This document shows positions 5,033-49,112 of a stretch of DNA of 64,000 bases, in pieces. The first letter of the stretch is position 1. Every line of letters starts with the position of its first letter. Below the pieces are notes generated by a model. The model was not told the DNA's origin and ran no database searches. It was given only the letters and a program-made list of their open reading frames with translations. Source of the stretch: Solirubrobacterales bacterium. Lineage in GTDB: Bacteria; Actinomycetota; Thermoleophilia; Solirubrobacterales; 70-9. The stretch spans positions 29,876 to 93,875 of the forward strand of contig JAWKKC010000006.1 of the NCBI GenBank assembly GCA_041393445.1, in the 5' to 3' direction. Both the position numbers and the translations under genes were made by a program.

Positions 5033-5118
<86 letters not shown>

Positions 5119-7584: not shown

Positions 7585-7587
7585 ACG

Positions 7588-7612
7588 GAAAGGCCCCTAT
7601 TTGGGGCCTTTC
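7588..7612 (+). terminator. Hairpin immediately after rnpB
   Basis: GAAAGGCCCC-TATTT-GGGGCCTTTC, a 10-bp stem. Confidence 0.6.
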
Positions 7613-7682
7613 CCATGAGATCGCAGCGCCGATTCCTGCCTCTGCAAGATTCTTCTCTTAGCGTTTGCTAACCTGCCGCCAA

Positions 7683-7812: not shown

Positions 7813-7817
7813 AGAGA

Positions 7818-8303
7818 ATGGGACAGAACAAGAACCGAATCCGCTGGGCTGCGGCCCTCGCCGCCGCGATTGCCTCCGTCGCACTGATCCCCGTGGCCTC
7901 CCAGGCGGCCACCGGCGGCGCCTCCGCCTTCGGCGGCGTCGGCAGCGGTGCCCAGAACGGCAGCGGCGGAGTGTTCACCGGCTGGAAGCGAGCCGGTGCG
8001 ACCTGGTACGGCCCGGGCCTCTACGGTCGCCATACCGCCTGCGGCCAAACCCTCCGCCCGAAGACGATCGGGGTCGCGCACAAGAGTCTCCCCTGCGGCA
8101 CCCGGGTCAAGTTCCGCTACCGGGGCCACGTCGTCGTCGCCCGGGTGATCGACCGCGGCCCCTACGTCCGGGGCGTCTCCTGGGACCTCACCGAGGCGGC
8201 CAGCGAACGACTCGACTTCGAGTCGGTGGGCAGGGACAAGGTCGCCTACGCGGTGCCCAAGAAGGTCGCCCACAAGATGCAGCGCGCCGAGCGCAGCCGC
8301 TAA
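7818..8303 (+). CDS. Secreted RlpA-like double-psi beta-barrel (DPBB) protein (putative cell-wall lytic transglycosylase type)
   Basis: Signal peptide MGQNKNRIRWAAALAAAIASVALIPVASQA, then ATWYGPGLYGRHTACGQTL...GVAHKSLPCGTRVKF...VVARVIDRGPY. ATG 7818 is chosen because the upstream part of the ORF is occupied by the riboswitch. Confidence 0.8.
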   Translation: MGQNKNRIRWAAALAAAIASVALIPVASQAATGGASAFGGVGSGAQNGSGGVFTGWKRAGATWYGPGLYGRHTACGQTLRPKTIGVAHKSLPCGTRVKFRYRGHVVVARVIDRGPYVRGVSWDLTEAASERLDFESVGRDKVAYAVPKKVAHKMQRAERSR

Positions 8304-33096: not shown

Positions 33097-34311
33097 TCAT
33101 GATCCTCCCTGGATCTTGGCGACGGCGCGGCCGGCCGCCTCCCACATCGAGACCGAGCGGTCGCAGTACTCGACCCCGTAGCGCTCGAGGATCTTGAAGC
33201 CCTCCTCCTCCCAGGCGCCCGGGATGCGGAAGATCGCGATCGTCTCGCCGGGCTCCTTGCCGAGCTCCAGGCAGGCCTTGATCACGCCGCGGGCGACGAT
33301 GTCGACCCGGGTGTTGGAGACGATCGACATCATCACGGCGATCTTCTCGACCCCGTCCTTCTCCAGTACCTCCTTGGCCAGGCCGCAGGCCTTGGCGACC
33401 GACGGGTTGCCGCCGATCTCGGAGTAGTTGGCCGGCTTGCCGCCCTGGCTGCGGACCGCGTCGGTCAGGGTCAGCGAGCCGCCGCCGGCCCCGATCACCA
33501 GGCCGAGGTTGCCGGTGAAGCCGTGGTCCTTGCCCTGGATCACGCCGCGGTGGTCGGCGGCGTCGATCGCCGCCACGTGGCGCTCGAAGTCGGAGGGCTC
33601 GTAGGTCTCGCGGGTGTCCTCCTCGGCGATCTCCAGCTGCTTGCGGAGCAGGACCTTCTGGCGGCCGACCGCCTCGTTCTCCATCTCCATGTGGGCGTCG
33701 AGGGCGACGAAGCTGCCGTCGGCCAGCTCGGCCAGCGGGTTGATCTCCGCCAGGGTCATGTCGTTGTCGCGGAAGAGCCGGGCGAGGCGGGCGAGGATCG
33801 GCGTCGCCCGGTTCAGCTGCGAGCCGGTCACCCCGGTCGCGGCGACCGTCTGCTTGGCCTCGAAGTCGGAGATCGGGAGGAGGTTGGAGACGTGGCCGCG
33901 GCCGACGTGGTCGGGGTGGGTCTCGGCGACCTCCTCGATGTCGATCCCGCCCATGTCGCTGAACAGCATCAGCGGCTGCTTCGCGGTCCCGTCCCAGACT
34001 ACGCCGGCGTAGTACTCCTGCTTGACCTCGGCTTTCGGGTCGACCAGGACGCCGCGCGGCATGTGGCCGTTGATCTCCAGCTGCAGGATCGCCTCGGCGT
34101 GGGCGGCGGCCTCCTCGGGGCGGTCGGCGAACTTGACCCCGCCGGCCTTCATCCGGCCGCCGGTCAGCACCTGCGACTTGATCACGACGGGGCCGCCGAT
34201 CTCCTCGGTCGCCTGGCGCGCCTCATCTGGCGTGGTGCAGAACCCGTACGCGGTGACGGGGATCCCTGCCAGCTCGACGATCCTGCGTGCCTCGTACTCG
34301 TAGAACCTCAT
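33097..34311 (-). CDS. sucC: Succinate--CoA ligase beta subunit family (ATP-grasp), archaeal-like N-terminus
   Basis: 404 aa. MRFYEYEARRIVELAGIPV, VVIKSQVLTGGR and EINPL are present. Substrate is not proven and could be another acid-thiol ligase such as malate thiokinase. Confidence 0.78.
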   Translation of the reverse strand: MRFYEYEARRIVELAGIPVTAYGFCTTPDEARQATEEIGGPVVIKSQVLTGGRMKAGGVKFADRPEEAAAHAEAILQLEINGHMPRGVLVDPKAEVKQEYYAGVVWDGTAKQPLMLFSDMGGIDIEEVAETHPDHVGRGHVSNLLPISDFEAKQTVAATGVTGSQLNRATPILARLARLFRDNDMTLAEINPLAELADGSFVALDAHMEMENEAVGRQKVLLRKQLEIAEEDTRETYEPSDFERHVAAIDAADHRGVIQGKDHGFTGNLGLVIGAGGGSLTLTDAVRSQGGKPANYSEIGGNPSVAKACGLAKEVLEKDGVEKIAVMMSIVSNTRVDIVARGVIKACLELGKEPGETIAIFRIPGAWEEEGFKILERYGVEYCDRSVSMWEAAGRAVAKIQGGS

Positions 34312-34448
34312 GCGCGGCGCGGACCCTATCCGAAGGGCTGACGGGCGTGAGCTGCGGGCTTTCCGAACCGGGATCGGCGGTCGCCAAGCGCCGTCCTGTC
34401 GGCGGCATTGGAATACTCCCCTGGGTGACCCCCCCTGAAGGGCCCTAG

Positions 34449-34757
34449 ATGAGGTCCGCGTTCCGTGTCCTCCCGGTGTTTGCGTTCGCGACCGTAGCGC
34501 TGGTCGCGTCGGGGTGCGGCAAGACCGTCGTCGACCAGGCCAAGCTCGAGGACACGATTCGCGCCAGCCTGGAACAATCCCTCGAACGCGAACGGAAGAT
34601 CACGGCGGTCGACTGTCCCTCCGGCCAAGAGGTCGAACCAGAAGCCACCTTCACCTGCTCGGTGCGCTTCTCGAACGGCGACAAGGCGACCGCGACCATG
34701 GAGATTCGCAACACGGATGCCGACGTCAGCCTCGTCGGCCTGAAAGCAAACGAATAG
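34449..34757 (+). CDS. DUF4333-like lipoprotein
   Basis: Signal peptide plus lipobox LVASGC. 102 aa with conserved Cys pairs (DCPSG...FTC), as in actinobacterial DUF4333. Confidence 0.65.
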
Positions 34758-34767
34758 AGAGAGGCGA

Positions 34768-36576
34768 ATGAGCGACCTGACCACCGCCCCCGCGCTGACC
34801 ACACACGCAAAGCTGCTGGACTGGGTAGGTGAGATCGCAGCGCTGACCCAGCCCGACGCCGTCCACTGGTGCGACGGCTCGGCCGGTGAGTACGACTCCC
34901 TCGCTCAGACCCTGATCGACGCCGGCACCTTCGAGCGCCTCTCCGACGCCAAGCGTCCCAACTCCTACCTCGCCCTCTCCGACCCGGCCGACGTCGCCCG
35001 GGTCGAGGACCGCACCTTCATCTGCTCCGAGCGGGAGGCCGACGCCGGCCCCAACAACAACTGGCGCGCCCCGGCCGCGATGCGGGCGGAGCTGGACGAC
35101 CTCTTCAAGGGGTGCATGAAGGGCCGCACGATGTACGTGGTGCCGTTCTCGATGGGCCCGATCGGCTCCCACATCTCCGAAATCGGCGTGCAGCTGACCG
35201 ATTCCGCCTACGTCGCGGTCTCGATGCGGATCATGACCCGGATGGGCAAGGCCGCCCTCGACGCGCTCGGCGACGATGGCGAGTTCGTCCCCTGCGTGCA
35301 CTCGGTCGGGATGCCTCTCGGCGAGGGCGTCAAGGACGTCTCCTGGCCCTGCAACGAGGACAACAAGTACATCGTCCACTACCCCGAGACCCGCGAGATC
35401 TGGTCCTTCGGCTCCGGCTACGGCGGCAACGCCCTGCTCGGCAAGAAGTGCTTCGCGCTGCGGATCGCCTCGGCGATGGCGCGCGACGAGGGCTGGTTGG
35501 CCGAGCACATGCTGATCCTCAAGCTGACCTCGCCCGAGGGGGTTGTCAAGTACGTGACCGGCGCCTTCCCGTCGGCCTGCGGCAAGACCAACCTCTCGAT
35601 GATGATCCCGACCCTGCCCGATTGGAAGGTCGAGACGATCGGCGACGACATCGCCTGGATGAAGTTCCACGAGGACGGCCGCCTCTACGCGGTCAACCCC
35701 GAGGCGGGCTTCTTCGGCGTCGCCCCCGGCACCGGTCACAAGACCAACCCGAACGCGATGGAGACGGTCGAGCGGAACACGATCTTCACCAACTGCGCCA
35801 AGACCGACGACGGCGACATCTGGTGGGAGGGGATGACCGGCGAGCCGCCGGAGCACGCGATCGACTGGCATGGCAACGAGTGGTCGCCGGACGCCGAGGC
35901 GCCGGCCGCGCACCCCAACTCACGCTTCACCACGCCGGCCGCGCAGTGCCCCTCGATCGCCCCGGAGTGGGAGGACCCGGCCGGGGTGCCGATCGACGCC
36001 TTCCTGTTCGGCGGTCGCCGCGCCACCACGGTGCCGCTCGTCCACGAGGCCTTCGATTGGGAGCACGGCGTCTTCCTCGGCGCCACGATGTCCTCCGAGA
36101 AGACGGCGGCGGCGGCCGGCAACCTCGGCGAACTGCGCTTCGACCCGATGGCGATGCTGCCCTTCTGCGGCTACAACATGGGCGACTACTTCGGCCACTG
36201 GCTCGAGGTCGCCAAGCGCGAGGGGGCGGTGCTGCCGCGGGTCTTCTACGTCAACTGGTTCCGCAAGGACGCCGACGGCAACTTCCTCTGGCCCGGGTTC
36301 GGCGAGAACAGTCGCGTCCTGGAGTGGATCTTCCGCCGCTGCGAGGGCAAGGCCGAGGCGGTCGAGTCGCCGATCGGGCTGCTGCCCGCGCCCGGCGCGA
36401 TCAACACCGACGGCCTCGAGATCACCACGGAGGCGATGGACGAGCTGCTCTCGGTCGACGCCGAGCTGGTCAAGCAGCAGCTGCCGCAGGTGCGCGAGCA
36501 CCTCGAGCAGTACGGCGAACGGCTGCCCGCCGCGCTCTCCGCGCAGCTGGAGGCCCTCGACCGGCGGCTGGGGTAG
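34768..36576 (+). CDS. pckG: Phosphoenolpyruvate carboxykinase (GTP)
   Basis: 602 aa with FPSACGKTN (kinase-1a), [16 protein letters not shown] and NWFRKD motifs. Confidence 0.95.
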
Positions 36577-36587
36577 GGCGAGCGGCC

Positions 36588-37028
36588 TTGGCGACGGGAA
36601 TCGGGATCGGTATCGACTTGGTCGCGGTCGAGGGGGTCGCCGCCAGCCTCGCGGGGTCCCACCGCGATCACTATCTCGAGCGGATCTACACCGAGCGGGA
36701 GGTCGACGACTGTCGCGGCCCTTCGGGGCGGATCGAGCCGGAGCGCCTGGCGGCCCGCTTCGCCGCCAAGGAGGCGACGATCAAGGCGCTGCCGGGCGCC
36801 GGGGAAGGGGTGAGGCTGACCGGGATCGAAGTCGTCGTGCGGCAGTCCGGGCAGGTCGCGATCGAGCTTTCGGGACGCGCGGCGGAGCTGGCCGCTGAGG
36901 CGGGGATCGAGGACCTGGCGCTGAGCCTGACCCACGAGGGGGGTTTCGCCGCCGCCGTCGTGGTCGGGCTGGGAGATCCCGCCCCGACGGTAATGCCGCG
37001 CCCGAATCTGCCGATCAGTAGACAATGA
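36588..37028 (+). CDS. acpS: Holo-[acyl-carrier-protein] synthase (AcpS-type 4'-phosphopantetheinyl transferase)
   Basis: GIGIDLVAV..., RFAAKEATIKAL and LSLTHEGGFAAAVVV motifs. TTG 36588 is provisional. The stop overlaps the carrier-protein ATG (ATGA at 37025-37028). Confidence 0.75.
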   Translation: MATGIGIGIDLVAVEGVAASLAGSHRDHYLERIYTEREVDDCRGPSGRIEPERLAARFAAKEATIKALPGAGEGVRLTGIEVVVRQSGQVAIELSGRAAELAAEAGIEDLALSLTHEGGFAAAVVVGLGDPAPTVMPRPNLPISRQ

Positions 37029-37267
37029 ACGAGAAGATCCGCCAAGTCATCCAGGACCACGCCCAGCTCTCGGTCGACGTCGGGAGCCTCGGCGACGACG
37101 ACGACCTCTATCAGGCGGGTATGACCTCGCATGCCAGCGTCAACGTGATGATTGCCCTCGAGGACACCTTCGACGTCGAGTTCCTCGACTCGATGCTGAA
37201 GCGCAGCGTCTTCGAGAGCGTGGCCTCGATCTCCGCGGCCCTGGAGGAGATAGGGGTGGCGGCATGA
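37025..37267 (+). CDS. Stand-alone acyl/aminoacyl carrier protein
   Basis: 80 aa with a four-helix pattern. LYQAGMTSHASVNVMIALE occupies the position of the DSL phosphopantetheine-attachment motif, and Ser in MTSH is the candidate site. Confidence 0.8.
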   Translation: MNEKIRQVIQDHAQLSVDVGSLGDDDDLYQAGMTSHASVNVMIALEDTFDVEFLDSMLKRSVFESVASISAALEEIGVAA

Positions 37268-38442
37268 CTGGTTCGCTCGCCACCGAGGCCGACCGTTCCC
37301 TGCTGGACGCGATCTGCCGTATCGGCGAGGAGGTCGCGGCGCCCAACGCCGACGACGTCGATCGCGATGCCCGCTTTCCGGTCGAGGCGGTCGGCGCCCT
37401 GCGCGAGGCCGGCGCCCTCTCGGCGTTCGTGCCCGTCGAGCTCGGTGGAGGGGGCGCTTCGATCGCCGCGATCGCCCAGTCTTGCTTCGAGCTTGGCCGG
37501 CGGTGCGGAGCCACCGCGATGGTCTTCGCGATGCACCAGATCCAGGTCGCTTGCATCGCCCGCCACCTCGAGGGATCGCCCTGGTTCGAGGAATACCTGC
37601 GCGAGGTAGCCGAGACGCAGCGGTTGATCGCCTCAATCACCTCCGAGGTCGGGACCGGCGGCGACATGGGAAGGTCGGTCGCTGCCGTCTCGGAGGCACT
37701 CGACGGCATCGCCGAGTTCGAGAAGCAGGCACCCACCGTCTCCTATGGGGGGCACGCCGACGACTTCTTGACCACCTTGCGCCGGGCTCCCGACGCAGAG
37801 CCCGGTGATCAGGTCCTGGTCCTGACCAGAGCCGACCAGACGCGGCTGGAGCCGCAGGGAACCTGGGACCCGCTCGGGATGCGCGGCACCTGTTCGCCGG
37901 GGTTCCTCGTCAAAGCGAGCTTCTCCGTCGAGCAGACGTTGGCGACTCCGTTCGCGGCGATCTCGACCGAGTCGATGACCCCGATCTCCCACATCCTCTG
38001 GTCCCACGTCTGGCTCGGCATCGCAACCGATGCCTTCGATCGGGCCAGGGCCTTCGTGCGGGCGGCGGCCAAGCGCAAGCCGGGTGAGCCGCTGCCGGCT
38101 GCGAGTCGCCTCTCCCATCTGATGAGCGAGCTCTCGCTGCTGCGGGCGGAGGTCTCGCTGGCCTTGCGCGAGTACTGCGACCTCGCTGACCAGGACCGGC
38201 CGCGACTTTCCGAGATGGCGACGATCCTCCGCTTCAACAACCTCAAGATCGCCGCCTCCGACCAGGCGCCACGGGTTTGTCAGAGCGCCCTCGCCGTCTG
38301 TGGGATCGTCGGCTACAAGAACGACACCCCGTTCAGCGTGGGCCGTCACCTGCGCGACACGATGTCGGCCTGCCTGATGGTCGCCAACGAGCGCATCCAC
38401 GCGACTGACGCCAGCCTGCTGCTGATCGCCAAGGAGGTCTGA
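37264..38442 (+). CDS. Acyl-CoA dehydrogenase-family flavoprotein (probably acting on a carrier-protein-tethered substrate)
   Basis: 392 aa. ACAD-type N-terminal helical, middle beta (ITSEVGTGGD) and C-terminal helical domains. ATGA overlap with the carrier-protein gene. Confidence 0.8.
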   Translation: MTGSLATEADRSLLDAICRIGEEVAAPNADDVDRDARFPVEAVGALREAGALSAFVPVELGGGGASIAAIAQSCFELGRRCGATAMVFAMHQIQVACIARHLEGSPWFEEYLREVAETQRLIASITSEVGTGGDMGRSVAAVSEALDGIAEFEKQAPTVSYGGHADDFLTTLRRAPDAEPGDQVLVLTRADQTRLEPQGTWDPLGMRGTCSPGFLVKASFSVEQTLATPFAAISTESMTPISHILWSHVWLGIATDAFDRARAFVRAAAKRKPGEPLPAASRLSHLMSELSLLRAEVSLALREYCDLADQDRPRLSEMATILRFNNLKIAASDQAPRVCQSALAVCGIVGYKNDTPFSVGRHLRDTMSACLMVANERIHATDASLLLIAKEV

Positions 38443-38444
38443 CC

Positions 38445-39380
38445 GTGGCCGAGTTCCGCCCGGGAACTCGCGAGCAGGACGAGTTCTTGCGTGAGCTCGT
38501 CGAAGCCGGCCTGCTGGTCGAGAGCGGCGTCCCCGGCGTCTACGGTCGCGGCACCGCTTTCGAGCGTGTCCGGGCCGGCTTCGATGCCCTGGTCAGCGAC
38601 GCCGCCGCCGCCGAATCGGCGGAGCGCCTCGCCTTCCCACCCCTGCTGCCCCGTGATCAGCTCGAGCGGATCGGGTACCTGAAGTCATTCCCGCACCTGG
38701 TCGGATCCGTCTTCGCCTTCGAGGGCGATGAGGGTGATGCCGCCGCCCAGGAGGAGCTCGCGTCCCGGCACGAGGACTGGAGCGGATTCCAGGAGATGAC
38801 CGATCTCGTGCTCACGCCGGCTGCCTGCTACCCGGTTTACCCGGCGGTCGCCGCCCGCGGTCCGTTGGCGGCGGGCGGAGTCACGGTCGACGCCGGGGGC
38901 TCCTACGTGTTCCGCCACGAGCCCTCCGGCGATCCAGCCCGGCTGCAGATGTTCCACCAGCGCGAGATCGTCCGCATCGCCGAGCCCGAGACGGTTGCCG
39001 TCTGGCGCGAGAGCTGGCGCGACCGCTCGGTCGAGCTGTTGCGCTCGGTCGGGCTCGAGGCGCGGTTCGACGTCGCATCCGACCCGTTCTTCGGGCGCAG
39101 CGGCCGGCTCCTTGCCCGCAGCCAGCGCTCGCAGGAGCTGAAGTTCGAGGTCCTGGTCCCGATCGCCGGCCCCGAGCCGACCGCCGTCGCCTCCTTCAAC
39201 TACCACCAGGACCATTTCACCGAGACCTACGGAATCGAGATCGACGCGCCCGATCCGACCGCCCACACCGCCTGCCTGGGCTTCGGCTTGGAGCGGATCG
39301 CGCTGGCCCTGCTGCGCGAGCACGGGCTCGAGCCCGGTGAGTGGCCCGAGGACGTCCGTGAGAAGTTGGGGCTCCGGTGA
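38445..39380 (+). CDS. Amino acid--[carrier-protein] ligase (truncated class II aaRS / SerRS-like catalytic core)
   Basis: 311 aa with AAGGAGGT SD 7 nt upstream of the GTG. Class II motif-2-like YVFRHEPSGDPARLQMFHQREIV and motif-3-like CLGFGLERIALALL are present. No tRNA-binding or anticodon-binding domain is present. Confidence 0.8.
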   Translation: MAEFRPGTREQDEFLRELVEAGLLVESGVPGVYGRGTAFERVRAGFDALVSDAAAAESAERLAFPPLLPRDQLERIGYLKSFPHLVGSVFAFEGDEGDAAAQEELASRHEDWSGFQEMTDLVLTPAACYPVYPAVAARGPLAAGGVTVDAGGSYVFRHEPSGDPARLQMFHQREIVRIAEPETVAVWRESWRDRSVELLRSVGLEARFDVASDPFFGRSGRLLARSQRSQELKFEVLVPIAGPEPTAVASFNYHQDHFTETYGIEIDAPDPTAHTACLGFGLERIALALLREHGLEPGEWPEDVREKLGLR

Positions 39381-40357
39381 GCGCGGCCGCGGACGCCGGG
39401 TTGGTGAGCCTCATCGGGCTGGACCCGCAGAGCTATGCGCCGCACTCGCTGCACGGTCCTGAGCGAACCTACCTCGAAACCAATTGCTACACGGACATCC
39501 TGATCGAGTTCGTCCACGCGCGGGGCGACGAGCCGCTGGCGATGATGGGCTGCACCCTGGGCATCGACTTCGAGGGCGATCAGTGGACGTTCTTCAAGCC
39601 GCGGCCGGAGGACCTGCTCCGGCTCTACGGCATCGACGTCCACGAGATGCAGCCCTACCGGCCGCTGCCCGACCAGATCGCCGAGCAGATCGAGGTTGGC
39701 CGGACCCTGATCGTGGAGCTCGACTCCTGGTACCTGCCGGACACCGCCGCGACCAGCTATCGCGCCGAGCACGTCAAGAGCTCGGTGGTCGCCGAGGCCA
39801 TCGACCGGGACTCCGAACGTCTGCGTTACTTCCACGGGGCCGGCTATCACGAGCTCGAGGGGGAGGACTACCGGGGGATCTTCCGGATCGGCCTCGACCT
39901 GCCAGGCGACGTGCTGCCCCCTTACACGGAGCTGGCGCGGCTCGATGCCGGCCCGAGGCTGTCGGGGGCGGAGCTGCGGACCGCGACGCTCGAGCTGCTG
40001 GCCGAGAACGTTGCGCGGCGCCCTGGCGACAACCCGTTCGAGCGCTTCGGATTCCAGCTCCGCGAGGATCTGCCGCGGCTGCTCGACGGGGATGTCCAGG
40101 ACTACCACGACTACGCGTTCGCGACGGTCAGGATGGCGGGCTCGGCCTTCGAGGCGGCCGGCTCCCACCTCCGCTGGCTGCTGGAGCCCGGCGAGGCGGC
40201 GGACGCGGTGGCCGCCTTCGAGGAGATCGTCGAGGGCTGCAAGACGCTCTCGTTCAAGCTGGCGCGGCGGCGCAGTTTCGATCCCGGGCCGGCGATCGAG
40301 TCGCTCGCGAGCTCTTGGGACGCAGGTTTCGCGGGACTGACCCGTGTCGCCGGCTGA
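39377..40357 (+). CDS. DUF1839-like protein (possible BtrH-like Cys acyltransferase)
   Basis: 326 aa with GTGA overlap to the ligase. N-terminal ETNCYTDILIEFVHARG resembles the catalytic-Cys helix of papain-fold/BtrH_N proteins. The family assignment is from memory. Confidence 0.6.
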   Translation: MSAAADAGLVSLIGLDPQSYAPHSLHGPERTYLETNCYTDILIEFVHARGDEPLAMMGCTLGIDFEGDQWTFFKPRPEDLLRLYGIDVHEMQPYRPLPDQIAEQIEVGRTLIVELDSWYLPDTAATSYRAEHVKSSVVAEAIDRDSERLRYFHGAGYHELEGEDYRGIFRIGLDLPGDVLPPYTELARLDAGPRLSGAELRTATLELLAENVARRPGDNPFERFGFQLREDLPRLLDGDVQDYHDYAFATVRMAGSAFEAAGSHLRWLLEPGEAADAVAAFEEIVEGCKTLSFKLARRRSFDPGPAIESLASSWDAGFAGLTRVAG

Positions 40358-42911
40358 GTCGATCGAGGTAGGGAACGGCTGGGAAGCGGCTCGCTGCGAG
40401 CCCGACTCGTGCCCGGATCCCGGCGCCGCGGCGGCGCTGGACTGGATGCCCGCCCGCGTGCCGGGCACCGCGGCAGCGGCGCTCGCCGCTCGCGACGGAG
40501 CCGGGCCGGATCAGGGCGACGAGGACCTCGACGCGGAGGACTGGTGGTTTCGGACCGTGCTGAGGGCACCGCCGCCGCGCCCCGGCGAGGAGCTGGTACT
40601 GCGGATCGGCGGCATCGCCACCGTCTCGGAGACCTACCTCGGCGGCCGGCTCGTCGCCGAGTGCGAATCGATGTTCCTCGCCCAGGAGATCGACGTCGGC
40701 GACCAGCTTGACGAGGAGGGCGTCGAGCTGGCGATCCGGTGCAGGGCCCTGGGCCCGCTGCTCGGGTCGCGGCGCAAGCCGCGCGCCCGCTGGCGCACGC
40801 GGCTCGTCGACGGCCGGCTGCGGTTCTTCCGCACCATGCTGCTCGGCCGCGCACCGGGTTTCGCGCCCGCGCCCGCGGCGGTCGGGCCGTGGCGCCCGGT
40901 CACCCTCGAGCGGCGCGGCGGCATCCTCGCCGACGGGGTGCGGCTCCGCACCCGGCTCGACGGCGAGGTGGGGGTGCTCGCGGCGAGCGGTGCGCTGAGC
41001 TGCCTCGGGGTCGAGTGCCCGGGCCGCGTCGAGTTGGAGCTCGAAGGCCCCTCGGGCCGTCACCGGGCCGAGCTCACCGTCGCCTCCGACCCGGCCGGGG
41101 CCACCCTGAGCGGTGAGCTGCGGGTCGCCGAAGTCGCCCGCTGGTGGCCCCATACCCACGGCGATCCCACTCTCCACGCGGTGCGCCTCCACGTCGATTG
41201 CGGCGAGGGCCCCGTCGTCTGCGACCTGGGCAAGGTCGGCTTCCGCGAGCTCTCGGGCTCCCGCGCCGGGGGCCAGGACCCGGCGGTGGAGGGTCTCGCG
41301 CTGGCCGTCAACGGCGTCCCGGTGTTCGCCCGCGGGGCGGTTTGGACGTCGCCCGACCCAGTTGGCCTGGCCCCCGGCGAGGAGGAGCTGCGAACGCAGC
41401 TCGAGCAGGTTCGGCGGGCGGGCATGAACATCGTCCGGGTGGTCGGGACCGGCGCCTACGAGAGCCCGCGCTTCCACGAGCTCTGCGACGAGCTCGGAAT
41501 CCTCGTCTGGCAGGACTTCATGTTCGCCAACCTCGACTACCCCGTCGCGGACGAGGCCTTCGGGGCGTTGGTCCGGGCCGAGCTGGAGGCCGTGCTGGCG
41601 AGGGTCGGCGGGCGGCCCAGTCTCGCCGTTCTCTGCGGCAACAGCGAGGTCGAGCAGCAGGCGGCGATGATGGGCCTCGACCCCGACCTGGGCCGGGGGG
41701 AGCTCTTCGGCGAGCTGCTTCCCGGGTTGATCGAGGAAGCCGAGGTCGACGCCGTCTACCTGCCCTCGGCGCCATGTGGCGGCGACCTTCCTTTCCGGGC
41801 CGACCGCGGCGTCGCCAACTACTTCGGGGTCGGCGGGTACCGCCGGCCGCTCGAGGACGCCCGCCTCGCCGACGTTCGCTTCGCCTCCGAGTGCCTCGCC
41901 TTCGCCAACGTCCCCGAGGACGAGGCGCTGAAACGGATCGCCGCCCCGGAGGCGGGTGCCGCGGTCGTCCACCACCCGCGCTGGAAGGCCGGCGTTCCCC
42001 GCGACGTCGGCGCCGGCTGGGACTTCGACGACGTTCGCGACCACTACCTCGCGCTGCTCTTCGGCGTCGACCCCGTCGAGTTGCGCAGGTTCGACCCGGA
42101 GCGTTATCTGGAGCTCTCCCGCGCGGTTGGCGGCGAGGCGATGGCCGCGGTGTTCGGCGAGTGGCGCCGCGCCGCGTCCCTCTGTGCGGGCGGCATCGTG
42201 CTCTGGTTGCGCGATCTCGCTCCCGGTGCCGGCTGGGGGCTGCTCGACGACGCCGGGGTCCCCAAGGAGGCCTTCCACCGGTTGCGCCGGGTGCTGGCGC
42301 CGCGAGCCGTGTGGCTGACCGACGAGGGCCTCAACGGGGTCGGAGTGCACATCGCCAACGATCGGTCGGAGCCGCTCGAGGGGACTCTGCGGGTGCGCCT
42401 CTACCGCGACCTGGAAAGGCTGGTCGGCGAGACGGAGCAGACGATCGCGGTCCCCGGCCACGGACAGCTGAGTCGCGATCTCGAGGGCCTGCTGGGCCAC
42501 TTCGCCGACGCCTCCTGGGCCTACCGGTTCGGCCCGCCCGCCCAGGACCTGATCGTGGCCAGCGTCGAGGACGAGTCGACCGGCACGACCCCGATCTCCG
42601 AGGCGATGCATTTTCCAGTCGGGCTTCCCGCCGTGTCCGAGCCCGTCGATCGGCTCGGGATCGAGGCCCGGGCCGAGCTCGTCGCCGCGGGCACCGTCGC
42701 TCTCACGCTGCTGGCGCGGCGGCTTCTGGTCGGCGTTCGGCTCGACGCTCCGGGGCTCGAGGCCGAGGATCGGTGCTTCGCCGTGCCGCCTGCGAGCGAG
42801 CGGGTGTTTATGCTGCGGGCTACGAGCAGGGGGGAGATCGGCAACGCGGTGAGGGTGCGCGCCCTCAACGCGGCGGGAAGCGTCACGGTCCCAATCGTCC
42901 CGCAAAGCTGA
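40344..42911 (+). CDS. Glycoside hydrolase family 2-like protein (beta-mannosidase-like architecture)
   Basis: 855 aa with N-terminal sugar-binding-like WEAA...WMPARVPGTAAAAL...EDWWFRT. The TIM-barrel region has MNIVRVVGTGAYE and ILVWQDFMFAN. Candidate acid/base is in CGNSEVEQ and candidate nucleophile in FASECLAFANVP. Confidence 0.7.
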   Translation: MSPAESIEVGNGWEAARCEPDSCPDPGAAAALDWMPARVPGTAAAALAARDGAGPDQGDEDLDAEDWWFRTVLRAPPPRPGEELVLRIGGIATVSETYLGGRLVAECESMFLAQEIDVGDQLDEEGVELAIRCRALGPLLGSRRKPRARWRTRLVDGRLRFFRTMLLGRAPGFAPAPAAVGPWRPVTLERRGGILADGVRLRTRLDGEVGVLAASGALSCLGVECPGRVELELEGPSGRHRAELTVASDPAGATLSGELRVAEVARWWPHTHGDPTLHAVRLHVDCGEGPVVCDLGKVGFRELSGSRAGGQDPAVEGLALAVNGVPVFARGAVWTSPDPVGLAPGEEELRTQLEQVRRAGMNIVRVVGTGAYESPRFHELCDELGILVWQDFMFANLDYPVADEAFGALVRAELEAVLARVGGRPSLAVLCGNSEVEQQAAMMGLDPDLGRGELFGELLPGLIEEAEVDAVYLPSAPCGGDLPFRADRGVANYFGVGGYRRPLEDARLADVRFASECLAFANVPEDEALKRIAAPEAGAAVVHHPRWKAGVPRDVGAGWDFDDVRDHYLALLFGVDPVELRRFDPERYLELSRAVGGEAMAAVFGEWRRAASLCAGGIVLWLRDLAPGAGWGLLDDAGVPKEAFHRLRRVLAPRAVWLTDEGLNGVGVHIANDRSEPLEGTLRVRLYRDLERLVGETEQTIAVPGHGQLSRDLEGLLGHFADASWAYRFGPPAQDLIVASVEDESTGTTPISEAMHFPVGLPAVSEPVDRLGIEARAELVAAGTVALTLLARRLLVGVRLDAPGLEAEDRCFAVPPASERVFMLRATSRGEIGNAVRVRALNAAGSVTVPIVPQS

Positions 42912-44665
42912 TGCCCTGTTCAGAGCCGCTTTACCTCGACACCGCGGTCGGCCCCGCCTTCGCGCTGGTCGACGCCCCCGCCGACCGGGTCGGCACCGCC
43001 GGATCGGCGGTGGTCGTCTCGCCCCCGTGGGGCTGGGAGGAGGTCGCTTCCTACCGGGTCCGTCGCTCCTGGGCACGGGCGCTTGCCGAGGCGGGACATC
43101 CGACCCTGCGACTGACTCCCCCCGGGACTGGCGACAGCGCTGGCTCGCCGGGCAGCCCAGGCCTCGTGGCCGCTTGGGTCGAGGCGATCGCGGCAGCCGC
43201 CGGGTGGCTGCGCCGCTCGACCGGGGTTGGCCGGGTGGCGCTGCTTGGCCTCGGGCTCGGCGGGCTGGTCGGGCTCGAGGCGGTCGCCGCCGGCGCGGCG
43301 ATCGACGACGTCGTGCTCTGGGCAATCCCGCTGAGCGGCAGGCGATTCGCCCGCGAGACCAACGCCTTCGCCGCGATGCAGGAGTGGACCGCTGACGGCG
43401 ACGCCGTTCTGCAGGCCGGCCTGCCCGAGGGCTGGATCGAGGCGGGCGGGTTCGCGATGAGCGCGGCGACGATGGCGGAACTGGAGGACCTGAAACCCCG
43501 CCTCGGGCCCGAGGCGGCGGCCGACCGCGCTCTTCTGCTCGGCCGGGACGGGGTCGCCGCGCCCGACGGCCTGGTCGGGATGCTCGGCGAGGCCGGGGTG
43601 GAGACCGAGACCGCTGCGGGGACGGGATGGGCGAGGATGGTCTCCCATCCCGAGCGTGCCGAGCTGCCGGCAACGGTGGTCGACGAGGTCCACGCCTGGC
43701 TGGCATCCGGGTCTGCGACCGGGGCGGAGCCCATGCCTGCCGGAGCGGCCCGGTCGGCACTCGAGGAGAACGGCGTCAGGGAGTCCGGCGCGATCCTGCC
43801 CCAGCCTTGGGGCGATGCTTTCGGGGTCGAAGCCAGGCCGCTCGGGCCCCCCGACCCCTACCTGCACGCGGTCTTCCTCAACGCCGGCGCAGTGCGCCAC
43901 GTCGGCCCCAACCGGATGTGGGTGGAGACGGCGCGGGCCTGGGCCCGGCGTGGCGTGACGTCGTCGCGGGTCGACCTCGAGGGGATCGGCGAGGCCGACG
44001 GCGAGCCCAGCGGCGTGCTCCAGGTCGGCGACTTCTACGACGACCGCTACGTCGCGCAGGTGCGGGCCCTGCTCGATTCGCTCGCCGCGAAGAACCCGGA
44101 GCGGCGATTCGTTCTCGTCGGTCTCTGTGCCGGGGCGTACTGGGCGTTTCGCGCGGCGGTCGAGGACGAGCGGGTCCTCGGTGCGTTCCTGGTCAACGCC
44201 GGGGCGCTGCGATGGCACCCCGACCTGTTGCTGGTCCGCGAGGCGCGCAAGGGGAAGCAGGCGCTCAGGGGAAGGTCGTGGAAGAAGGTCCTGCAGGGCA
44301 AAGTCGGCCCGGCCCGGGTGGCCTCCTTTGCCCGGTCCTCGCTTGCGAGTGGCTTGCAGCACCTCGGCGGCTCCAACTGGCAGGAGTCGCTGAGCGAGGA
44401 GATCGAAGCCGACCTCGATGGCCTGCGCGAGTCGGAGACCTCGGTTTGGATGGCGTTCAGCGGGTCCGAGCCGCTTGGCCAGGAGGTCCTGCAGATGGGG
44501 CTCGCCGACCGCCTGGACCGGTGGCCGAACCTGCAGCTCGAGGCGCTTCCGGGCGAAGACCACACCCTGCGGCCAATCGCGGCTCAGCGTGCCGCGCGAG
44601 ACCTCCTGGATCGTGAGCTGGAAGGCTTGATCGCCCGCGCTCGCGGACGATCCAAGACGGCCTAG
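42911..44665 (+). CDS. Two-domain alpha/beta-hydrolase-fold protein (first elbow GLGLGG, second elbow GLCAG)
   Basis: 584 aa. The ATG shares one nt with the GH2 stop (TGATG). Each half has a PGTGDSAG / EGIGEADG loop followed by a nucleophile-elbow-like strand-turn. Cys406 codon TGT is at 44126-44128. A C-terminal His lies in [10 protein letters not shown]. Confidence 0.7.
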
Positions 44666-45714
44666 AGCTCATAGGCGTCGGCCAGCTCGGGATCCTTCTC
44701 GGCCAGCATTTCGGCCAGGCCGACCATCACCTTGCACTGCTTCCAAGTCGCGTCGTCCTGCATCTTGCCGTCGATCATGTGGACGCCACGACCGTCGGGG
44801 ATCGCCTCCAGCACCTTCTTGGCGAACTTGACCTCGTCCGGCGGCGGGCTGAACACCTTCTTGGCGATCTCGATCTGCACCGGGTGCAGCGACCAGGCGC
44901 CGACGCAGCCGAGCAGGAAGGCGGCACGGAACTGGGTCTCGCAGCCGGCGGTGTCCTTGATGTCGCCGAACGGCCCGTAGAAGGGGAGGATCCCGGTCGA
45001 GGCACAGGCATCGACCATGCGCGCGATCGAGTAGTGCCAGGGGTCCTGCTGGGCGGTGATCCGGTCGGCCTCGGGGTTCTCCGGGTCGGCCGGGTCCTCC
45101 ATCGAGCGGTAGCCCGGGTGGCCGCCGCCGACCCGGGTCGTCTTCATCCGCCGCGAGGCGGCGAGGTCGGCCGGGCCGAAGCTCATCCCCTGCATGCGGG
45201 GGCTGGCGGCGGCGATCTCCTCGACGTTGACGACGCCCTGGGCGGTCTCGAGGATCGCGTGGATCAGCAGCGGGCGGTCGAGCTTCGCCTTCGCCTCCAG
45301 CTGGGCAAGCAGGCGGTCGGCGTAATGGATGTCCCAGGCACCCTCGACCTTCGGCACCATGATCACCTCGAGCTGGTCGCCGATCTCGGCGACCAGGGTG
45401 GTGAGGTCGTCCAGCACCCAGGGGCTCTCCAGCGAGTTGACCCGGGTCCAGAGCGAGGTCTGGCCGAAGTCGGTCTCCTTGGCGGCTTTGATCAGGCCCT
45501 GCCGCGCCGCCTCCTTGCGGTCGAAGGGGATCGCGTCCTCCAGGTTGCCGAGCAGGATGTCGGTCTTGGCGGCGATCGCGCCCGCCTTGGCGACCATTTT
45601 CTCGTTCGAGAAATCGAGGAAGTGGATCATCCGGGAGGGCTTGACCGGGATCTCGTGCAGCGGCCCCGGCGCGCCCATCGCCAGTGGTTGGAAGAAGTCT
45701 CTCGGGTTTCTCAA
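44662..45714 (-). CDS. HpcH/CitE-family acyl-CoA lyase, L-malyl-CoA/beta-methylmalyl-CoA lyase-like
   Basis: 350 aa. Long stretches match my memory of Mcl proteins ([68 protein letters not shown]). Confidence 0.75.
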
Positions 45715-45792
45715 AGTGCTCCTCGGTCGGTGAGTCGGGTTCGGTGCAATCTATTGGCCGGCGAGCTTTGCCGCCTGCGGTGACCCTAGATT

Positions 45793-46206
45793 TTGGCCGA
45801 GATGGAGGGCACCCAACGCGACAGCACCGAGGAGTGGCTGCTGCCCGAGGGGCGGCGGCCGCTCAGCGTCGCCGAGCTCGAGCAGCGGGTCGACCAGGCC
45901 CTGGCCGTCGCCCGCTCGGCCGAAAGCGCGGCGCTGGAGATCGGCGCGGCGGCGTTGGAAAGCGCCGAGCAGGCGAAGCGGGCCGCTGACCTGGCCGAGA
46001 GCGCCAGCGTGGTCGCCCTGGAGGCGAGCCGGGGTGTCGCCGGGGGGCGGTCGGACGGCGCCCTGTCGGCTGGCGCCTCGCGCCGCCCCGGGCGCGGGGC
46101 CAGTCCGGAACCGGCCACCCACGCTGGGCCGGCCCCCGACCCCCTGACTGCGTTCGTCGAGCGGGCCGACCGCGTCGCAGCGCGGTTTCGGGCTGTCGGC
46201 GGCTAG
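45793..46206 (+). CDS. Hypothetical protein (Ala/Glu-rich)
   Basis: 137 aa with high GC3 in frame. No motif recognised. Confidence 0.45.
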   Translation: MAEMEGTQRDSTEEWLLPEGRRPLSVAELEQRVDQALAVARSAESAALEIGAAALESAEQAKRAADLAESASVVALEASRGVAGGRSDGALSAGASRRPGRGASPEPATHAGPAPDPLTAFVERADRVAARFRAVGG

Positions 46207-46253: not shown

Positions 46254-47018
46254 CTAGCGGCAGGCGCCGTCGAGCCAGCGGCGGCGCAGCTCGGCGGCGA
46301 GCGGGCGGGCCGCCGTTTCCGGGCAGGGGATCGGGTCGGCGTCGATCGCCCGGACCGGCTCGACGCCGCGCACTGAGCCGGTCAGAAAGACCTCGTCGGC
46401 GCCGACGAGGTCGTCTCGGTAGATCGGCTGTTCGCGCACCTCGACCCCCTCGCTCCGCGCCAGCTCGATCGCGGCGGCGCGGGTGATGCCCGGTAGGACA
46501 CCTGCTGCCAGCGGCGGTGTGAGCAGGACGCCCTCGCGGGCGAGGAAGACGTTTGCGCGCGAGGCCTCGAGCACCGTCCCGTCCTCGCGGACGAGGAGCG
46601 GCACGGTCCCGGTCGGTCCCAGCGCCTCGGCGCGCTCCAGCATTGCCCGGTCGGCCCACTTGTGGCCACCGAGGCCGCGGTCGACGACGATCGTGCTCAG
46701 CGCTGCGGCGGACTCGCCGCGAGGGAAAACGTCTCCCGGGTAGACGCCGGCGACGATCGCGGAGGCGCGCAGCTCGTCGCCGTGCGGGGCGACGGTTGCG
46801 CGCACCCGCCCGAGCTCGACGCCCGCGGATTCGCGCAGGACCAGCTCGCGAGCCCGGTCCGGCGGGTCTTGGCCGAACAGCGCGCGGGTGCTGGCAGTGA
46901 GCCGATCGAGGTGGGCGTCGAGCTCGACCGGGGCGCCGGCGACCACGAGGGTGGTCTCGAACACCCCCTGACGGGGGTCTGGCCGAGGGCGCTTCGCTGC
47001 GCCTGGCTCGTGTGCCAT
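46254..47018 (-). CDS. pabC: Class IV aminotransferase-fold protein, aminodeoxychorismate lyase-like
   Basis: GVFETTLV, EASRANVF, LPGITR and EVFLTGSVRGVEPV motifs. It is divergent from pabA/pabB. ATG 47018 (MAHEPG) is preferred. Confidence 0.75.
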   Translation of the reverse strand: MAHEPGAAKRPRPDPRQGVFETTLVVAGAPVELDAHLDRLTASTRALFGQDPPDRARELVLRESAGVELGRVRATVAPHGDELRASAIVAGVYPGDVFPRGESAAALSTIVVDRGLGGHKWADRAMLERAEALGPTGTVPLLVREDGTVLEASRANVFLAREGVLLTPPLAAGVLPGITRAAAIELARSEGVEVREQPIYRDDLVGADEVFLTGSVRGVEPVRAIDADPIPCPETAARPLAAELRRRWLDGACR

Positions 47019-47061
47019 CGTGGCGATGATAGTGCCGCCCCGGAGCCGAGCGGGACAGTCG

Positions 47062-47643
47062 GTGAAGACACTGTTGGTCGACAATTACGATTCGTTCACC
47101 TACAACCTCTTCCAGTTGCTCTGGGAGGTGAACGGGGCCGAGCCGACCGTGGTGCGCAACGACGAGGCGACCTGGGAGGAGCTGGCGGCGCGGGAAGTCG
47201 ACGCGGTGGTGATCTCGCCCGGGCCGGGCCGCCCCGACCGTCGCCGCGACTTCGGCCTCTGCGCCGAGGCGATCCGCCGCTGCGAGCTGCCGCTGCTGGG
47301 AGTCTGCCTCGGCCACCAGGGGATCGGTTGGGTTCACGGTGGCGAGGTGACGGCTGCGCCCGAGCCGATGCACGGCCGCATCGACCCGATCGTCCATCGC
47401 GGCGCGCCGCTCTTCGCCGGGATCCCAAGCGGCTTCGGCGCGGTCCGCTACCACTCGCTCTGCCTGGCCCGGCCCCTGCCCGCCTGCCTCGAGGAGATCG
47501 CCTCCAGCGGCGACGGCGTGCCGATGGCGCTCGCCCACCGCAGCCGCCCCCAGTGGGGCGTCCAGTTCCACCCCGAGTCGGTCGCCACCGAGCACGGCCG
47601 CCGCCTGCTCGAGAACTTCCGCGACCTCACCCTCCGGCCATGA
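47062..47643 (+). CDS. pabA: Glutamine amidotransferase component (PabA/TrpG type)
   Basis: LLVDNYDSFTYNL, GVCLGHQ (Cys nucleophile) and VQFHPES. GTG 47062 or ATG 47020 is the start. ATGA overlap with the next gene. Confidence 0.85.
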   Translation: MKTLLVDNYDSFTYNLFQLLWEVNGAEPTVVRNDEATWEELAAREVDAVVISPGPGRPDRRRDFGLCAEAIRRCELPLLGVCLGHQGIGWVHGGEVTAAPEPMHGRIDPIVHRGAPLFAGIPSGFGAVRYHSLCLARPLPACLEEIASSGDGVPMALAHRSRPQWGVQFHPESVATEHGRRLLENFRDLTLRP

Positions 47644-49112
47644 AGCTGCAGGTGCGCAGGCTGGAGGCGCTGCCCGATCCCGAGCAGGCGTTCGCGGCGC
47701 TCTACGGGGAAAGCGAGGATGCCTTCTGGCTCGATAGCGCCCGGTCGGGCGAAGGGGTGCGGTTCTCCTTCATGGGCGATGCCTCCGGGCCCCTGGCCTC
47801 GGTGATCGCCTACGACGTCACCGCCGGGGAGGCGAGGATCGCGCGCCGCAGCGGCACCGAGACGACCTCGGGCCCGCTGCTGGACCTGCTCGGGCGCGAG
47901 CGGAGCCGGCTGGTGCCGGCCGAGCCGGCCGAGCTGCCGTTCGGGTTCGACTGCGGTCCGGTCGGCTACCTCGGCTACGAGCTGAAGGCCGAGCTGGGCG
48001 GCGATGCCGTCCACCGCTCGACCCACCCGGACGCCGCCTTCGTGGTTGCCGACCGGATGCTCGCCTTCGACCACGAGGCAGGTCGCACCTACCTGCTCTG
48101 CCTGGTCGCCGGCGATGGCGAAGCCGAGGCCGGGGAGTGGCTGCGGGACACCGCCGCCGGGCTCGAGGCCCTTGCCGCGGACGGCGCCGGCGCCGGCCGC
48201 CGCATCGGCGCCCCGGTGGGGGCCGAAATCGGCCGCCGGGCGAGCCCGCGGCTGGCCCGGGACCGCGCGCGCTACCTGGCGGACATCGCGGCCTGCCGGG
48301 AGGCGCTGCTGGAGGGGGAGAGCTACGAGATCTGCCTGACCAACCAGGTCGAGTTGGAGGTCGAGGCGGACCCGCTCGACCTCTACCGGCGCCTGCGGCG
48401 TGCCAACCCGGCCCCCTTCGCCGCCTACCTGCGGTTCGGCGAGCTGGCCGTGCTCAGCTCCTCGCCGGAGCGCTTCCTCGCCGTCGGTCGGGATGGCCGG
48501 GTCGAGGCGAAGCCGATCAAGGGCACCAGCCGCCGGGACCCCGAGCCGGCGATCGACGCGATGCTGGCCGCCCGGCTCGCCGCCGACGAGAAGAGCCGGG
48601 CCGAGAACCTGATGATCGCCGACCTGCTGCGCAACGACCTCGGCGTCGTCTGCGAGCCCGGCAGCGTCGAGGTGCCGGCGCTGAGCGCGGTCGAGAGCTA
48701 CGAGACCGTCCACCAGCTGGTCACCACGGTGCGCGGCCGGCTGCGCCGGGGGCTGGGGGCGACCGACGCGGTCGCCGCCTGCTTTCCCCCCGGTTCGATG
48801 ACCGGGGCCCCGAAGCGGCGGACGATGGAGATCATCGACAGGCTCGAGGAAGCACCCCGCGGCGTCTACTCGGGCGCGATCGGGTATCTCGGGCTCGGCG
48901 GCGGTTGCGACCTCGCGGTGGCGATCCGCACCATCGTCCTCGCCGGGGGTCGTGCCACGATCGGCACAGGCGGCGCGATCGTGCTCCAGTCCGACCCCGA
49001 AGCCGAGTACGAGGAGATGCTGCTGAAGGCCGCGGCACCGCTCCGGGCGCTTGATCTCGAAGCCGCTTGCCGGCTCGAGCTCGAGACGATGCCGTTGCGC
49101 CTGGAGGGTTAA
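47640..49112 (+). CDS. pabB: Aminodeoxychorismate synthase component I (chorismate-binding enzyme)
   Basis: 490 aa with SSPERFL, KPIKGT, ENLMIADLLRND, PPGSMTGAPK and GVYSGAIGY. The Pab (rather than Trp) assignment rests on the neighbouring ADC-lyase-like gene. Confidence 0.82.
   Translation: MKLQVRRLEALPDPEQAFAALYGESEDAFWLDSARSGEGVRFSFMGDASGPLASVIAYDVTAGEARIARRSGTETTSGPLLDLLGRERSRLVPAEPAELPFGFDCGPVGYLGYELKAELGGDAVHRSTHPDAAFVVADRMLAFDHEAGRTYLLCLVAGDGEAEAGEWLRDTAAGLEALAADGAGAGRRIGAPVGAEIGRRASPRLARDRARYLADIAACREALLEGESYEICLTNQVELEVEADPLDLYRRLRRANPAPFAAYLRFGELAVLSSSPERFLAVGRDGRVEAKPIKGTSRRDPEPAIDAMLAARLAADEKSRAENLMIADLLRNDLGVVCEPGSVEVPALSAVESYETVHQLVTTVRGRLRRGLGATDAVAACFPPGSMTGAPKRRTMEIIDRLEEAPRGVYSGAIGYLGLGGGCDLAVAIRTIVLAGGRATIGTGGAIVLQSDPEAEYEEMLLKAAAPLRALDLEAACRLELETMPLRLEG

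Follow-up and report, generated by a model that had tools for sequence, protein, structure and literature searches.

A predicted amino acid:[carrier protein] ligase gene in a translationally coupled, widely conserved operon of a Solirubrobacterales genome

Gene content of the operon

We analysed a window of 64,000 nucleotides (the whole stretch of DNA presented here, to which all positions refer), in which seven plus-strand genes run from 36588 to 44665 with stops and starts that overlap or nearly abut. They are listed below in their order along the DNA, together with the Shine-Dalgarno sequence of the fourth gene, the ligase gene that is the subject of this report.

36588..37028, plus strand: AcpS-type 4'-phosphopantetheinyl transferase (PPTase), 146 aa, TTG start (PF01648 ACPS, E 8e-12; TIGR00556, 73.5 bits against a cutoff of 45)
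37025..37267, plus strand: dedicated aminoacyl carrier protein, 80 aa (NF005480, 104.4 bits against a cutoff of 72; PF00550; GenBank MEZ5079005.1)
37264..38442, plus strand: acyl-CoA-dehydrogenase-fold (ACAD-like) flavoprotein, 392 aa, presumed modifier of the aminoacyl-S-carrier protein (PF02771, PF00441)
38431..38438, plus strand: Shine-Dalgarno sequence AAGGAGGT, read from the DNA, 6 nt before the ligase GTG
38445..39380, plus strand: predicted amino acid:[carrier protein] ligase, GTG start, 311 aa, catalytic core of a methanogen-type SerRS-like class II enzyme
39377..40357, plus strand: DUF1839 protein, 326 aa, predicted papain-like Cys transacylase or amide synthase (PF08893, E 7e-97)
40344..42911, plus strand: GH2 beta-mannosidase-like protein, 855 aa (PDB beta-mannosidases 5N6U, E 7e-45, and 2VQU, 6.5e-44, over residues 33-707; PF22666; MEZ5079009.1)
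42911..44665, plus strand: double alpha/beta-hydrolase, 584 aa, in two halves (PF12146; GenBank MEZ5079010.1)

The ligase gene sits in a translationally coupled operon: the PPTase stop overlaps the carrier-protein start (ATGA), the TGA of the ACAD-like gene at 38440-38442 lies just ahead of the ligase GTG, and the GH2 stop shares bases with the double-hydrolase start (TGATG). From the carrier protein on, the gene calls agree exactly with those of NCBI, and the ligase product is GenBank MEZ5079007.1, the same 311 aa, from a Solirubrobacterales MAG (Thermoleophilia, Actinomycetota). The first-pass annotation had proposed a 311-aa ORF with a strong Shine-Dalgarno sequence at this position, as well as a carrier-protein ORF at 37025-37267, and both are real: NCBI calls the same ligase product and AAGGAGGT precedes it at the spacing given above, while the carrier protein is recognised by PF00550 and NF005480 and is an adjacent cognate carrier protein homologous to Atu2571. 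That the ligase sequence derives from a MAG is a point to be set against the reading given below.

A scan of positions 34300-45900 for promoters and terminators returned nothing exceeding the shuffled background. A transcript shared with the PEPCK gene, which lies 12 nt upstream, was considered and set aside, the adjacency being kept in just the three closest loci with enough flank and probably incidental. The long overlapping ORFs at 35112-37028, 41144-44665 and 40254-43760 were discarded as high-GC artefacts, as judged by codon-position GC and by their lack of domains.

The carrier protein matches the ‘aminoacyl carrier protein’ Atu2571 (4H2W_C, 2JQ4) with an E of 6e-14, and Ser35 within GMTSH (codon 37127-37129) is its predicted phosphopantetheine attachment site, from alignment to the GLSSF motif. 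Its neighbour, the ACAD-like protein, is about equidistant from true ACADs and from flavin monooxygenases of the DnmZ, nitrososynthase and DszC type. PDB alignments of this protein end at residues 367-369, before the catalytic-base position, and manual registration places Val373, with no Glu, at the position of the canonical YEG glutamate; across 69 orthologues the nearby Glu376 is not conserved. Because that glutamate is missing and Glu376 is not conserved, ordinary alpha,beta-dehydrogenation by this protein appears unlikely. Ser242-His243 is conserved in the same 69 orthologues. As a point of chemistry, alpha,beta-dehydrogenation is impossible on a glycyl thioester. At the far end of the operon, each half of the double hydrolase weakly resembles an ‘exosortase A system-associated hydrolase’: residues 6-193 match the hydrolase 2 model (TIGR03101) and residues 326-553 the hydrolase 1 model (TIGR03100), both below threshold.

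Distribution and synteny of the cassette

Relatives of the ligase are abundant. More than 7,600 proteins in a 90%-clustered collection match it at E <= 1e-10, and 251 clusters at 50% identity do so at E <= 1e-30. Scanning a single genome for each GTDB species, with a 12-sequence alignment as seed (a 60-sequence alignment was too divergent for this), gave at least 594 confirmed relatives, many of them in Actinomycetota and others in Chloroflexota and Myxococcota. The best 80 of these at least 594 include many Solirubrobacterales and other Thermoleophilia, a Frankiaceae MAG, Conexibacter sp. DBS9H8, Baekduia, Chloroflexia and Myxococcales, and also many Alphaproteobacteria (Rhizobium, Agrobacterium, Bosea, Methylosinus).

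The genes around the ligase travel with it. When the window's proteins were searched against 81 loci by tblastn, the carrier protein was found in 77, the ACAD-like protein and the DUF1839 protein in 74 each and the GH2 protein in 68. The double hydrolase and the PPTase were found less often, at 52 and 47 loci respectively. Order and strand were the same as in the window in nearly all of these loci. The order carrier protein, ACAD-like, ligase, DUF1839, GH2 is accordingly kept in 68-77 of the 81 loci, spanning Actinomycetota, Chloroflexota, Myxococcota and Alphaproteobacteria including Agrobacterium; in the Agrobacterium loci it is the Atu2571-2575 arrangement, making the operon core syntenic, and bll0958, which adjoins bll0957, is likewise an acyl-CoA dehydrogenase.

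This distribution bears on the suggestion, made in the first-pass annotation, that occurrence in an actinobacterial-type genome would extend the family beyond its rhizobial examples. It does not: the MEZ5079007.1 record is already named as an amino acid--[acyl-carrier-protein] ligase, relatives occur in at least 594 species genomes, and a Rhodococcus cassette was tabulated in 2019 as holo-ACP synthase, aminoacyl carrier protein, acyl-CoA dehydrogenase, amino acid-ACP ligase and three hypothetical proteins (PMC6328493). Given the wide distribution and the conserved synteny, the ligase gene is an orthologue in a known cassette. It is an already catalogued member of a family whose structure and biochemistry were described in 2010-2013 and whose presence in Actinomycetota is in both databases and print, and the cassette is common to hundreds of bacterial species. 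What value remains lies in the operon, a cassette found in hundreds of species and at least four phyla, where the fold likeness of the DUF1839 protein (see below) and an ACAD-like protein without its catalytic glutamate offer a way to test what amino acid:[carrier protein] ligases do biologically.

Identity and active site of the ligase

The Pfam search of the ligase returned no recognising model, and it was NCBIfam that placed the protein: NF005479, the model for amino acid--[acyl-carrier-protein] ligase, matches ligase residues 8-309 over model positions 16-316 of 318 with 391.2 bits (E 2.7e-117), above its curated cutoff of 357, and a match of that strength is not due to chance. Among solved structures the best match is Bradyrhizobium Bll0957 (3MEY, 4H2W; E 4e-74 to 6e-76, residues 25-310), at 46% identity in a MAFFT alignment, followed by the SerRS of M. 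kandleri (3W3S, 1e-15) and of M. barkeri (2CIM, 2.5e-10). The methanogen-type SerRS models NF002120 (65 bits, E 5e-18, against a cutoff of 611) and TIGR00415 (46.7 bits, E 1.5e-12, against a cutoff of 489.55) cover the C-terminal core alone, at model positions ~308-506, as do the PDB SerRS alignments (residues ~307-513). No other domain was found in the ligase by the Pfam and NCBIfam searches, the tRNA-binding N-terminal and anticodon-binding domains being absent, and full-length orthologues are uniformly 309-311 aa.

Four features within the ligase are relevant to its proposed activity.

38826..38828, plus strand: codon of Cys128, predicted first zinc ligand (PAACYP), kept in 60 of 60 relatives; aligns with C151 of the Bll0957 chain and with the Cys of LAPAQCEPFY in 3W3S
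38904..38972, plus strand: motif 2, residues 154-176, with invariant Arg157 (60 of 60) and predicted zinc ligand Glu174 (58 of 60)
39093..39134, plus strand: residues 217-230, GRSGRLLARSQRSQ, candidate carrier-protein-binding helix, from comparison of Bll0957 PDB sequences
39273..39314, plus strand: motif 3, residues 277-290, with predicted zinc ligand Cys277 and invariant Arg284 (both 60 of 60)

Conservation was scored in 60 sequences that represent clusters at 50% identity and whose identity to the ligase ranges from 33 to 74%. All 60 keep Cys128, Cys277, Arg157 and Arg284, and 58 keep Glu174. In HMMER alignments, Cys128, Glu174 and Cys277 pair with C151, E196 and C299 of the Bll0957 chain, or C131, E176 and C279 after correction for the tag (-20 residues); Glu174 and Cys277 pair with E375 and C481 of M. 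barkeri SerRS 2CIM, or E355 and C461 after the same correction; and all three positions pair with Cys, Glu and Cys of M. kandleri SerRS 3W3S. We take C131/E176/C279 and E355/C461 to be the published zinc-ligand numbers of Bll0957 and M. barkeri SerRS respectively. These numbers are said to come from Mocibob 2010 for the former and Bilokapic 2006 for the latter.

Much of this had been anticipated by the first-pass annotation from the letters of the sequence. Its motif-2-like YVFRHEPSGDPARLQMFHQREIV and motif-3-like CLGFGLERIALALL are residues 154-176 and 277-290 as claimed, and its numbering of Cys128, Glu174 and Cys277 is right (codons 38826-38828, 38964-38966 and 39273-39275). The Cys/Glu/Cys placement that it had offered agrees with the alignments to Bll0957 and methanogen-type SerRS and with retention of the triad in 58-60 of the 60 relatives. 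Its description of a class II catalytic core lacking tRNA-binding and anticodon-binding domains holds, since the SerRS alignments cover the C-terminal core alone, and so does its reading of the protein as an amino acid:[carrier protein] ligase, which passes NF005479 and has Bll0957 as its nearest solved relative, then methanogen-type SerRS.

Reviews describe amino acid:[carrier protein] ligases as dimers that depend on zinc. These enzymes attach Gly or Ala to the phosphopantetheine of a carrier protein whose gene shares the operon of the ligase, and they leave tRNA uncharged (PMC9437257, PMC5370406). The flanks of the third predicted ligand read TACLG in the window's ligase, TGCVA in the Gly-specific Bll0957 and TACVG in the Agrobacterium orthologue, and positions 276 and 278-279, beside Cys277, vary across the family. 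A call between Gly and Ala from these flanks was rejected as unsupported without ligand-bound coordinates.

A candidate site for carrier-protein binding emerges from the two Bll0957 PDB sequences, which differ in one stretch alone, corresponding to ligase residues 217-230. In the variant that was crystallised with Atu2571 this place is taken by GRAGKMLANNQRDQ, an Agrobacterium-type stretch that is also found in the Agrobacterium orthologue, and the basic stretch of the ligase, GRSGRLLARSQRSQ, is conserved and resembles the Atu2573-type stretch grafted into that variant. Since the co-crystallised variant differs at just this place and the ligase stretch is similar, residues 217-230 are probably the carrier-protein docking helix.

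We consider it very probable, on family membership, catalytic residues, partner genes and synteny, that the ORF encodes a genuine amino acid:[carrier protein] ligase, a truncated relative of seryl-tRNA synthetase that loads a small amino acid onto a carrier protein and not onto tRNA. The detectable similarity to methanogen-type SerRS in NF002120, TIGR00415, 3W3S and 2CIM, and the practice of JGI pipelines of naming homologues ‘seryl-tRNA synthetase’, might instead point to a true seryl-tRNA synthetase, or to a truncated or pseudogenised copy that still acts on tRNA. Against this, the scores of 65 and 47 bits compare with cutoffs of 611 and 490 and reflect the C-terminal core alone, the N-terminal tRNA-binding domain is missing, the uniform length of full-length orthologues shows that the protein is not a fragment, its gene is consistently syntenic with a carrier protein, and characterised amino acid:[carrier protein] ligases do not aminoacylate tRNA (PMC5370406); we give this explanation next to no credence. 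Equally hard to credit is a class II paralogue other than a ligase, of the AsnA, HisZ or PoxA kind, with an amidating, regulatory or protein-modifying role. No truncated paralogues of class II aaRS are better known, and the first-pass annotation had named a closest relationship to AsnA or HisZ as the outcome that would tell against its reading, but none of the three families is among the NCBIfam or PDB matches, where the sole matches are to amino acid:[carrier protein] ligase and methanogen-type SerRS, and an identity of the AsnA, HisZ or PoxA type is refuted at the level of sequence by these searches.

Somewhat more room, though still little, is left for an enzyme with the fold of an amino acid:[carrier protein] ligase that serves another acceptor, such as a free thiol (CoA or cysteine), or that uses a substrate other than Gly or Ala. 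In vitro, free CoA and cysteine are further acceptors for characterised ligases (PMC5370406), paralogues elsewhere adjoin a chorismate-binding enzyme, an ATP-grasp protein or an aminotransferase, which indicates that the family serves more than one pathway, and the variable positions near Cys277 would allow for differences in substrate. Set against these points are the carrier protein and dedicated PPTase translationally coupled in the same operon, a carrier protein that passes the equivalog model NF005480 and occurs together with the ligase in 77 of 81 loci, and the conservation of the candidate carrier-protein-binding stretch at 217-230. We regard such a departure as improbable, and continue with the protein as an amino acid:[carrier protein] ligase.

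A possible pathway and comparison with known systems

Where the loaded amino acid might go is suggested by the likeness of the DUF1839 protein to CcbD and CtaG. The AF2 model of this protein (pLDDT 87.4, pTM 0.87) places Cys37 (codon 39485-39487), which lies in an invariant ETNCY, as the first residue of a helix, and H132, H153 and H244 are also invariant. When the model was compared with the PDB by Foldseek, it matched AziU3/U2, CcbD and CtaG over its full length (TM 0.54-0.63, E 4e-7 to 2e-5, 321-359 aligned columns, probability 1.00), with ordinary papain-like proteases far behind. By sequence, no weak Pfam clan match appeared at E up to 10, comparison with PDB chains gave insignificant single matches (E 0.09 and 0.3), and there was no profile match to CcbD or CtaG. 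The model thus suggests a resemblance, at the level of fold only, to the carrier-protein-dependent amide synthases CcbD and CtaG. DUF1839 has independently been classed as papain-like, with a Cys-(Thr/Ser)-His triad from modelling (PMC10318531). CcbD and CtaG both move acyl groups from carrier-protein thioesters to amines by way of a catalytic Cys (PMC12945683, PMC12865890); in CcbD the tethered group is proline, and an amino sugar supplies the amine (PMC12945683). CtaG, BtrH and AsbE are thiotemplated protease-like ligases whose fold architecture has also been described (PMC12865890). A note added in proof in Biol Direct in 2010 predicted that Atu2574 ligates an amino acid to a cell-surface sugar amine (PMC2922099), a prediction that the modelled fold match and the invariant Cys and His residues of DUF1839 support.

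A sequence of steps can be proposed for the operon as a whole. The AcpS-type transferase at its head would prime the carrier protein from apo to holo. Zinc bound by Cys128, Glu174 and Cys277 would hold a small amino acid, glycine or alanine; we infer both the metal and the specificity by homology with Bll0957 and Atu2573. The amino acid and ATP would form an aminoacyl-adenylate with the participation of motif-2 Arg157 and motif-3 Arg284, after which the aminoacyl group would pass to the phosphopantetheine thiol on Ser35 of the carrier protein (80 aa), whose gene is the second one upstream of the ligase gene. The steps downstream of loading we infer with lower confidence: the ACAD-fold flavoprotein may alter the aminoacyl thioester, and DUF1839, acting as a CcbD/CtaG-like Cys transacylase, may hand the product to an amine or hydroxyl acceptor. 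That acceptor would probably be a sugar, given the linked GH2 beta-mannosidase-like gene.

Taken together, these steps would make the cassette a widespread NRPS-independent thiotemplated pathway in which DUF1839, as an enzyme of the CcbD/CtaG/BtrH type, moves a glycyl or alanyl group, once the flavoenzyme has modified it, from the carrier protein to an amino sugar or glycan. We put this forward tentatively, as a reading that falls somewhat short of likely. If true, it would give amino acid:[carrier protein] ligases a physiological role, a question open since 2010, and would confirm the prediction that Atu2574 is an amide-forming enzyme (PMC2922099).

The closest known enzymes are the amino acid:[carrier protein] ligases Bll0957 and Bll6282 of Bradyrhizobium japonicum and Atu2573 of Agrobacterium tumefaciens (PDB 3MEY, 3MF1, 3PZC, 4H2S-4H2Y). 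All three were reportedly studied by Mocibob et al. in 2010 and 2013. Like them, the window's ligase is of the same length class, is built on the class II core and has the Cys/Glu/Cys triad together with the arginines of motifs 2 and 3, and its locus shares with those of Agrobacterium and Bradyrhizobium the gene order carrier protein, ACAD-like, ligase, DUF1839, GH2, with a carrier protein homologous to Atu2571. It differs in its host, a MAG of the Thermoleophilia (Actinomycetota); in opening with its own AcpS-type PPTase, which is present in 47 of the 81 loci and in no alphaproteobacterial locus; and in its double hydrolase, which is same-strand and translationally coupled in the window but lies on the opposite strand in the compared loci of Bll0957 and Atu2573 type.

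With methanogen-type SerRS (M. barkeri 2CIM/2CJ9, M. kandleri 3W3S) the ligase has in common a homologous core, in which E174 corresponds to E355, C277 to C461 and C128 to the Cys of PAQCEP, whereas it lacks the N-terminal tRNA-binding domain, is ~200 residues shorter and scores 65 bits where the SerRS model demands 611. Its expected acceptor is likewise different, being a phosphopantetheine thiol, where that of methanogen-type SerRS is tRNA.

For the DUF1839 protein the relevant comparison is with the papain-like carrier-protein-dependent amide synthases, namely CcbD/LmbD (lincosamide synthetase), CtaG (closthioamide), BtrH (butirosin) and AsbE. Its model superposes full-length on CcbD, CtaG and AziU3/U2, with an invariant Cys at a helix N-terminus, and it is always encoded beside a carrier protein and the enzyme that loads it. 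It departs from the CcbD/CtaG group, which has a Cys-His-Asp/Glu triad, in its reported Cys-(Thr/Ser)-His triad and in having no detectable sequence similarity to them.

DltA and the adenylation domains of NRPS carry out the same chemistry as that expected of the ligase, adenylating an amino acid with ATP and then forming a thioester with a phosphopantetheinyl carrier protein. They belong to the ANL superfamily, with a fold unrelated to the class II aaRS core, and are functional analogues of the ligase rather than homologues. The resemblance of amino acid:[carrier protein] ligases to adenylation domains has been noted before (PMC9437257).

Operon boundaries and neighbouring genes

Upstream, the carrier-protein operon is preceded by a gene whose stop lies 12 nt before the start of the 4'-phosphopantetheinyl transferase (PPTase) gene, and downstream a chorismate-binding enzyme is encoded about 2 kb beyond its end.

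34768-36576, GTP-dependent PEP carboxykinase gene
46662-49112, chorismate-binding enzyme region

Adjacency of the PEP carboxykinase and PPTase genes is confined to the closest relatives among the loci compared (L003, L007 and L061, with L001 and L004 showing it partially, at contig ends). Chorismate-binding enzymes also occur directly after paralogous amino acid:[carrier protein] ligases in two other genomes.

L057 7628-10381, paralogous ligase region, Conexibacter sp. DBS9H8
L044 6243-11711, paralogous ligase region, Solirubrobacteraceae MAG

Near its paralogous ligase, the Conexibacter locus also encodes an acetolactate synthase and an alpha/beta-hydrolase; in the Solirubrobacteraceae locus the other neighbours are an ATP-grasp protein and a class III aminotransferase. 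Because a convergent CitE-like gene stands between the window's chorismate-binding enzyme and the operon, their nearness may be coincidental.

Three very long ORFs (35112-37028, 40254-43760 and 41144-44665) run across real genes, in a different frame or on the opposite strand, and were rejected as genes since domains are absent from them outside the embedded real genes; the first and third also failed the codon-position GC filter. All three are spurious, produced by the 71% GC content.

Structured RNAs elsewhere in the window

Three RNA features were identified, of which the riboswitch lies approximately 90 nt downstream of the RNase P RNA and on the same strand.

5033-5118, minus strand, tRNA-Leu (GAG) gene
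7253-7589, bacterial class A RNase P RNA (204 bits)
7677-7821, c-di-AMP (ydaO-type) riboswitch (97.5 bits)

Proteins encoded with the ligase

Three of the proteins encoded alongside the ligase were considered individually.

37264-38442, plus strand, acyl-CoA dehydrogenase (ACAD)-fold protein without the canonical catalytic Glu
39377-40357, plus strand, DUF1839 protein
42911-44665, plus strand, double alpha/beta-hydrolase (584 aa, two hydrolase halves)

The two halves of the double hydrolase show weak similarity to the models TIGR03101 and TIGR03100, named "exosortase A system-associated hydrolase 2 and 1". Loci L005 and L050 encode the ligase along with a carrier protein and the double hydrolase but have no ACAD, DUF1839 or GH2 gene, which suggests that the hydrolase acts directly with the loaded carrier protein.

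For the DUF1839 protein, the closest PDB folds to the AF2 model (pLDDT 87.4) are those of CcbD and CtaG, papain-like amide synthases that depend on a carrier protein, and of AziU3/U2 (TM 0.54-0.63). The likeness is at the fold level only, with no sequence-profile match. The model places Cys37, within the invariant ETNCY, at the N-terminus of a helix, and the invariant Arg297-Arg299 cluster where helix 275-297 of the C-terminal domain ends.

In the ACAD-fold protein, manual registration puts Val373 at the YEG position in place of the canonical catalytic Glu; across 69 orthologues, Ser242-His243 is conserved and Glu376 is not. The protein, whose presumed substrate is an aminoacyl thioester, is as near to monooxygenases of the DszC/nitrososynthase type as it is to dehydrogenases.
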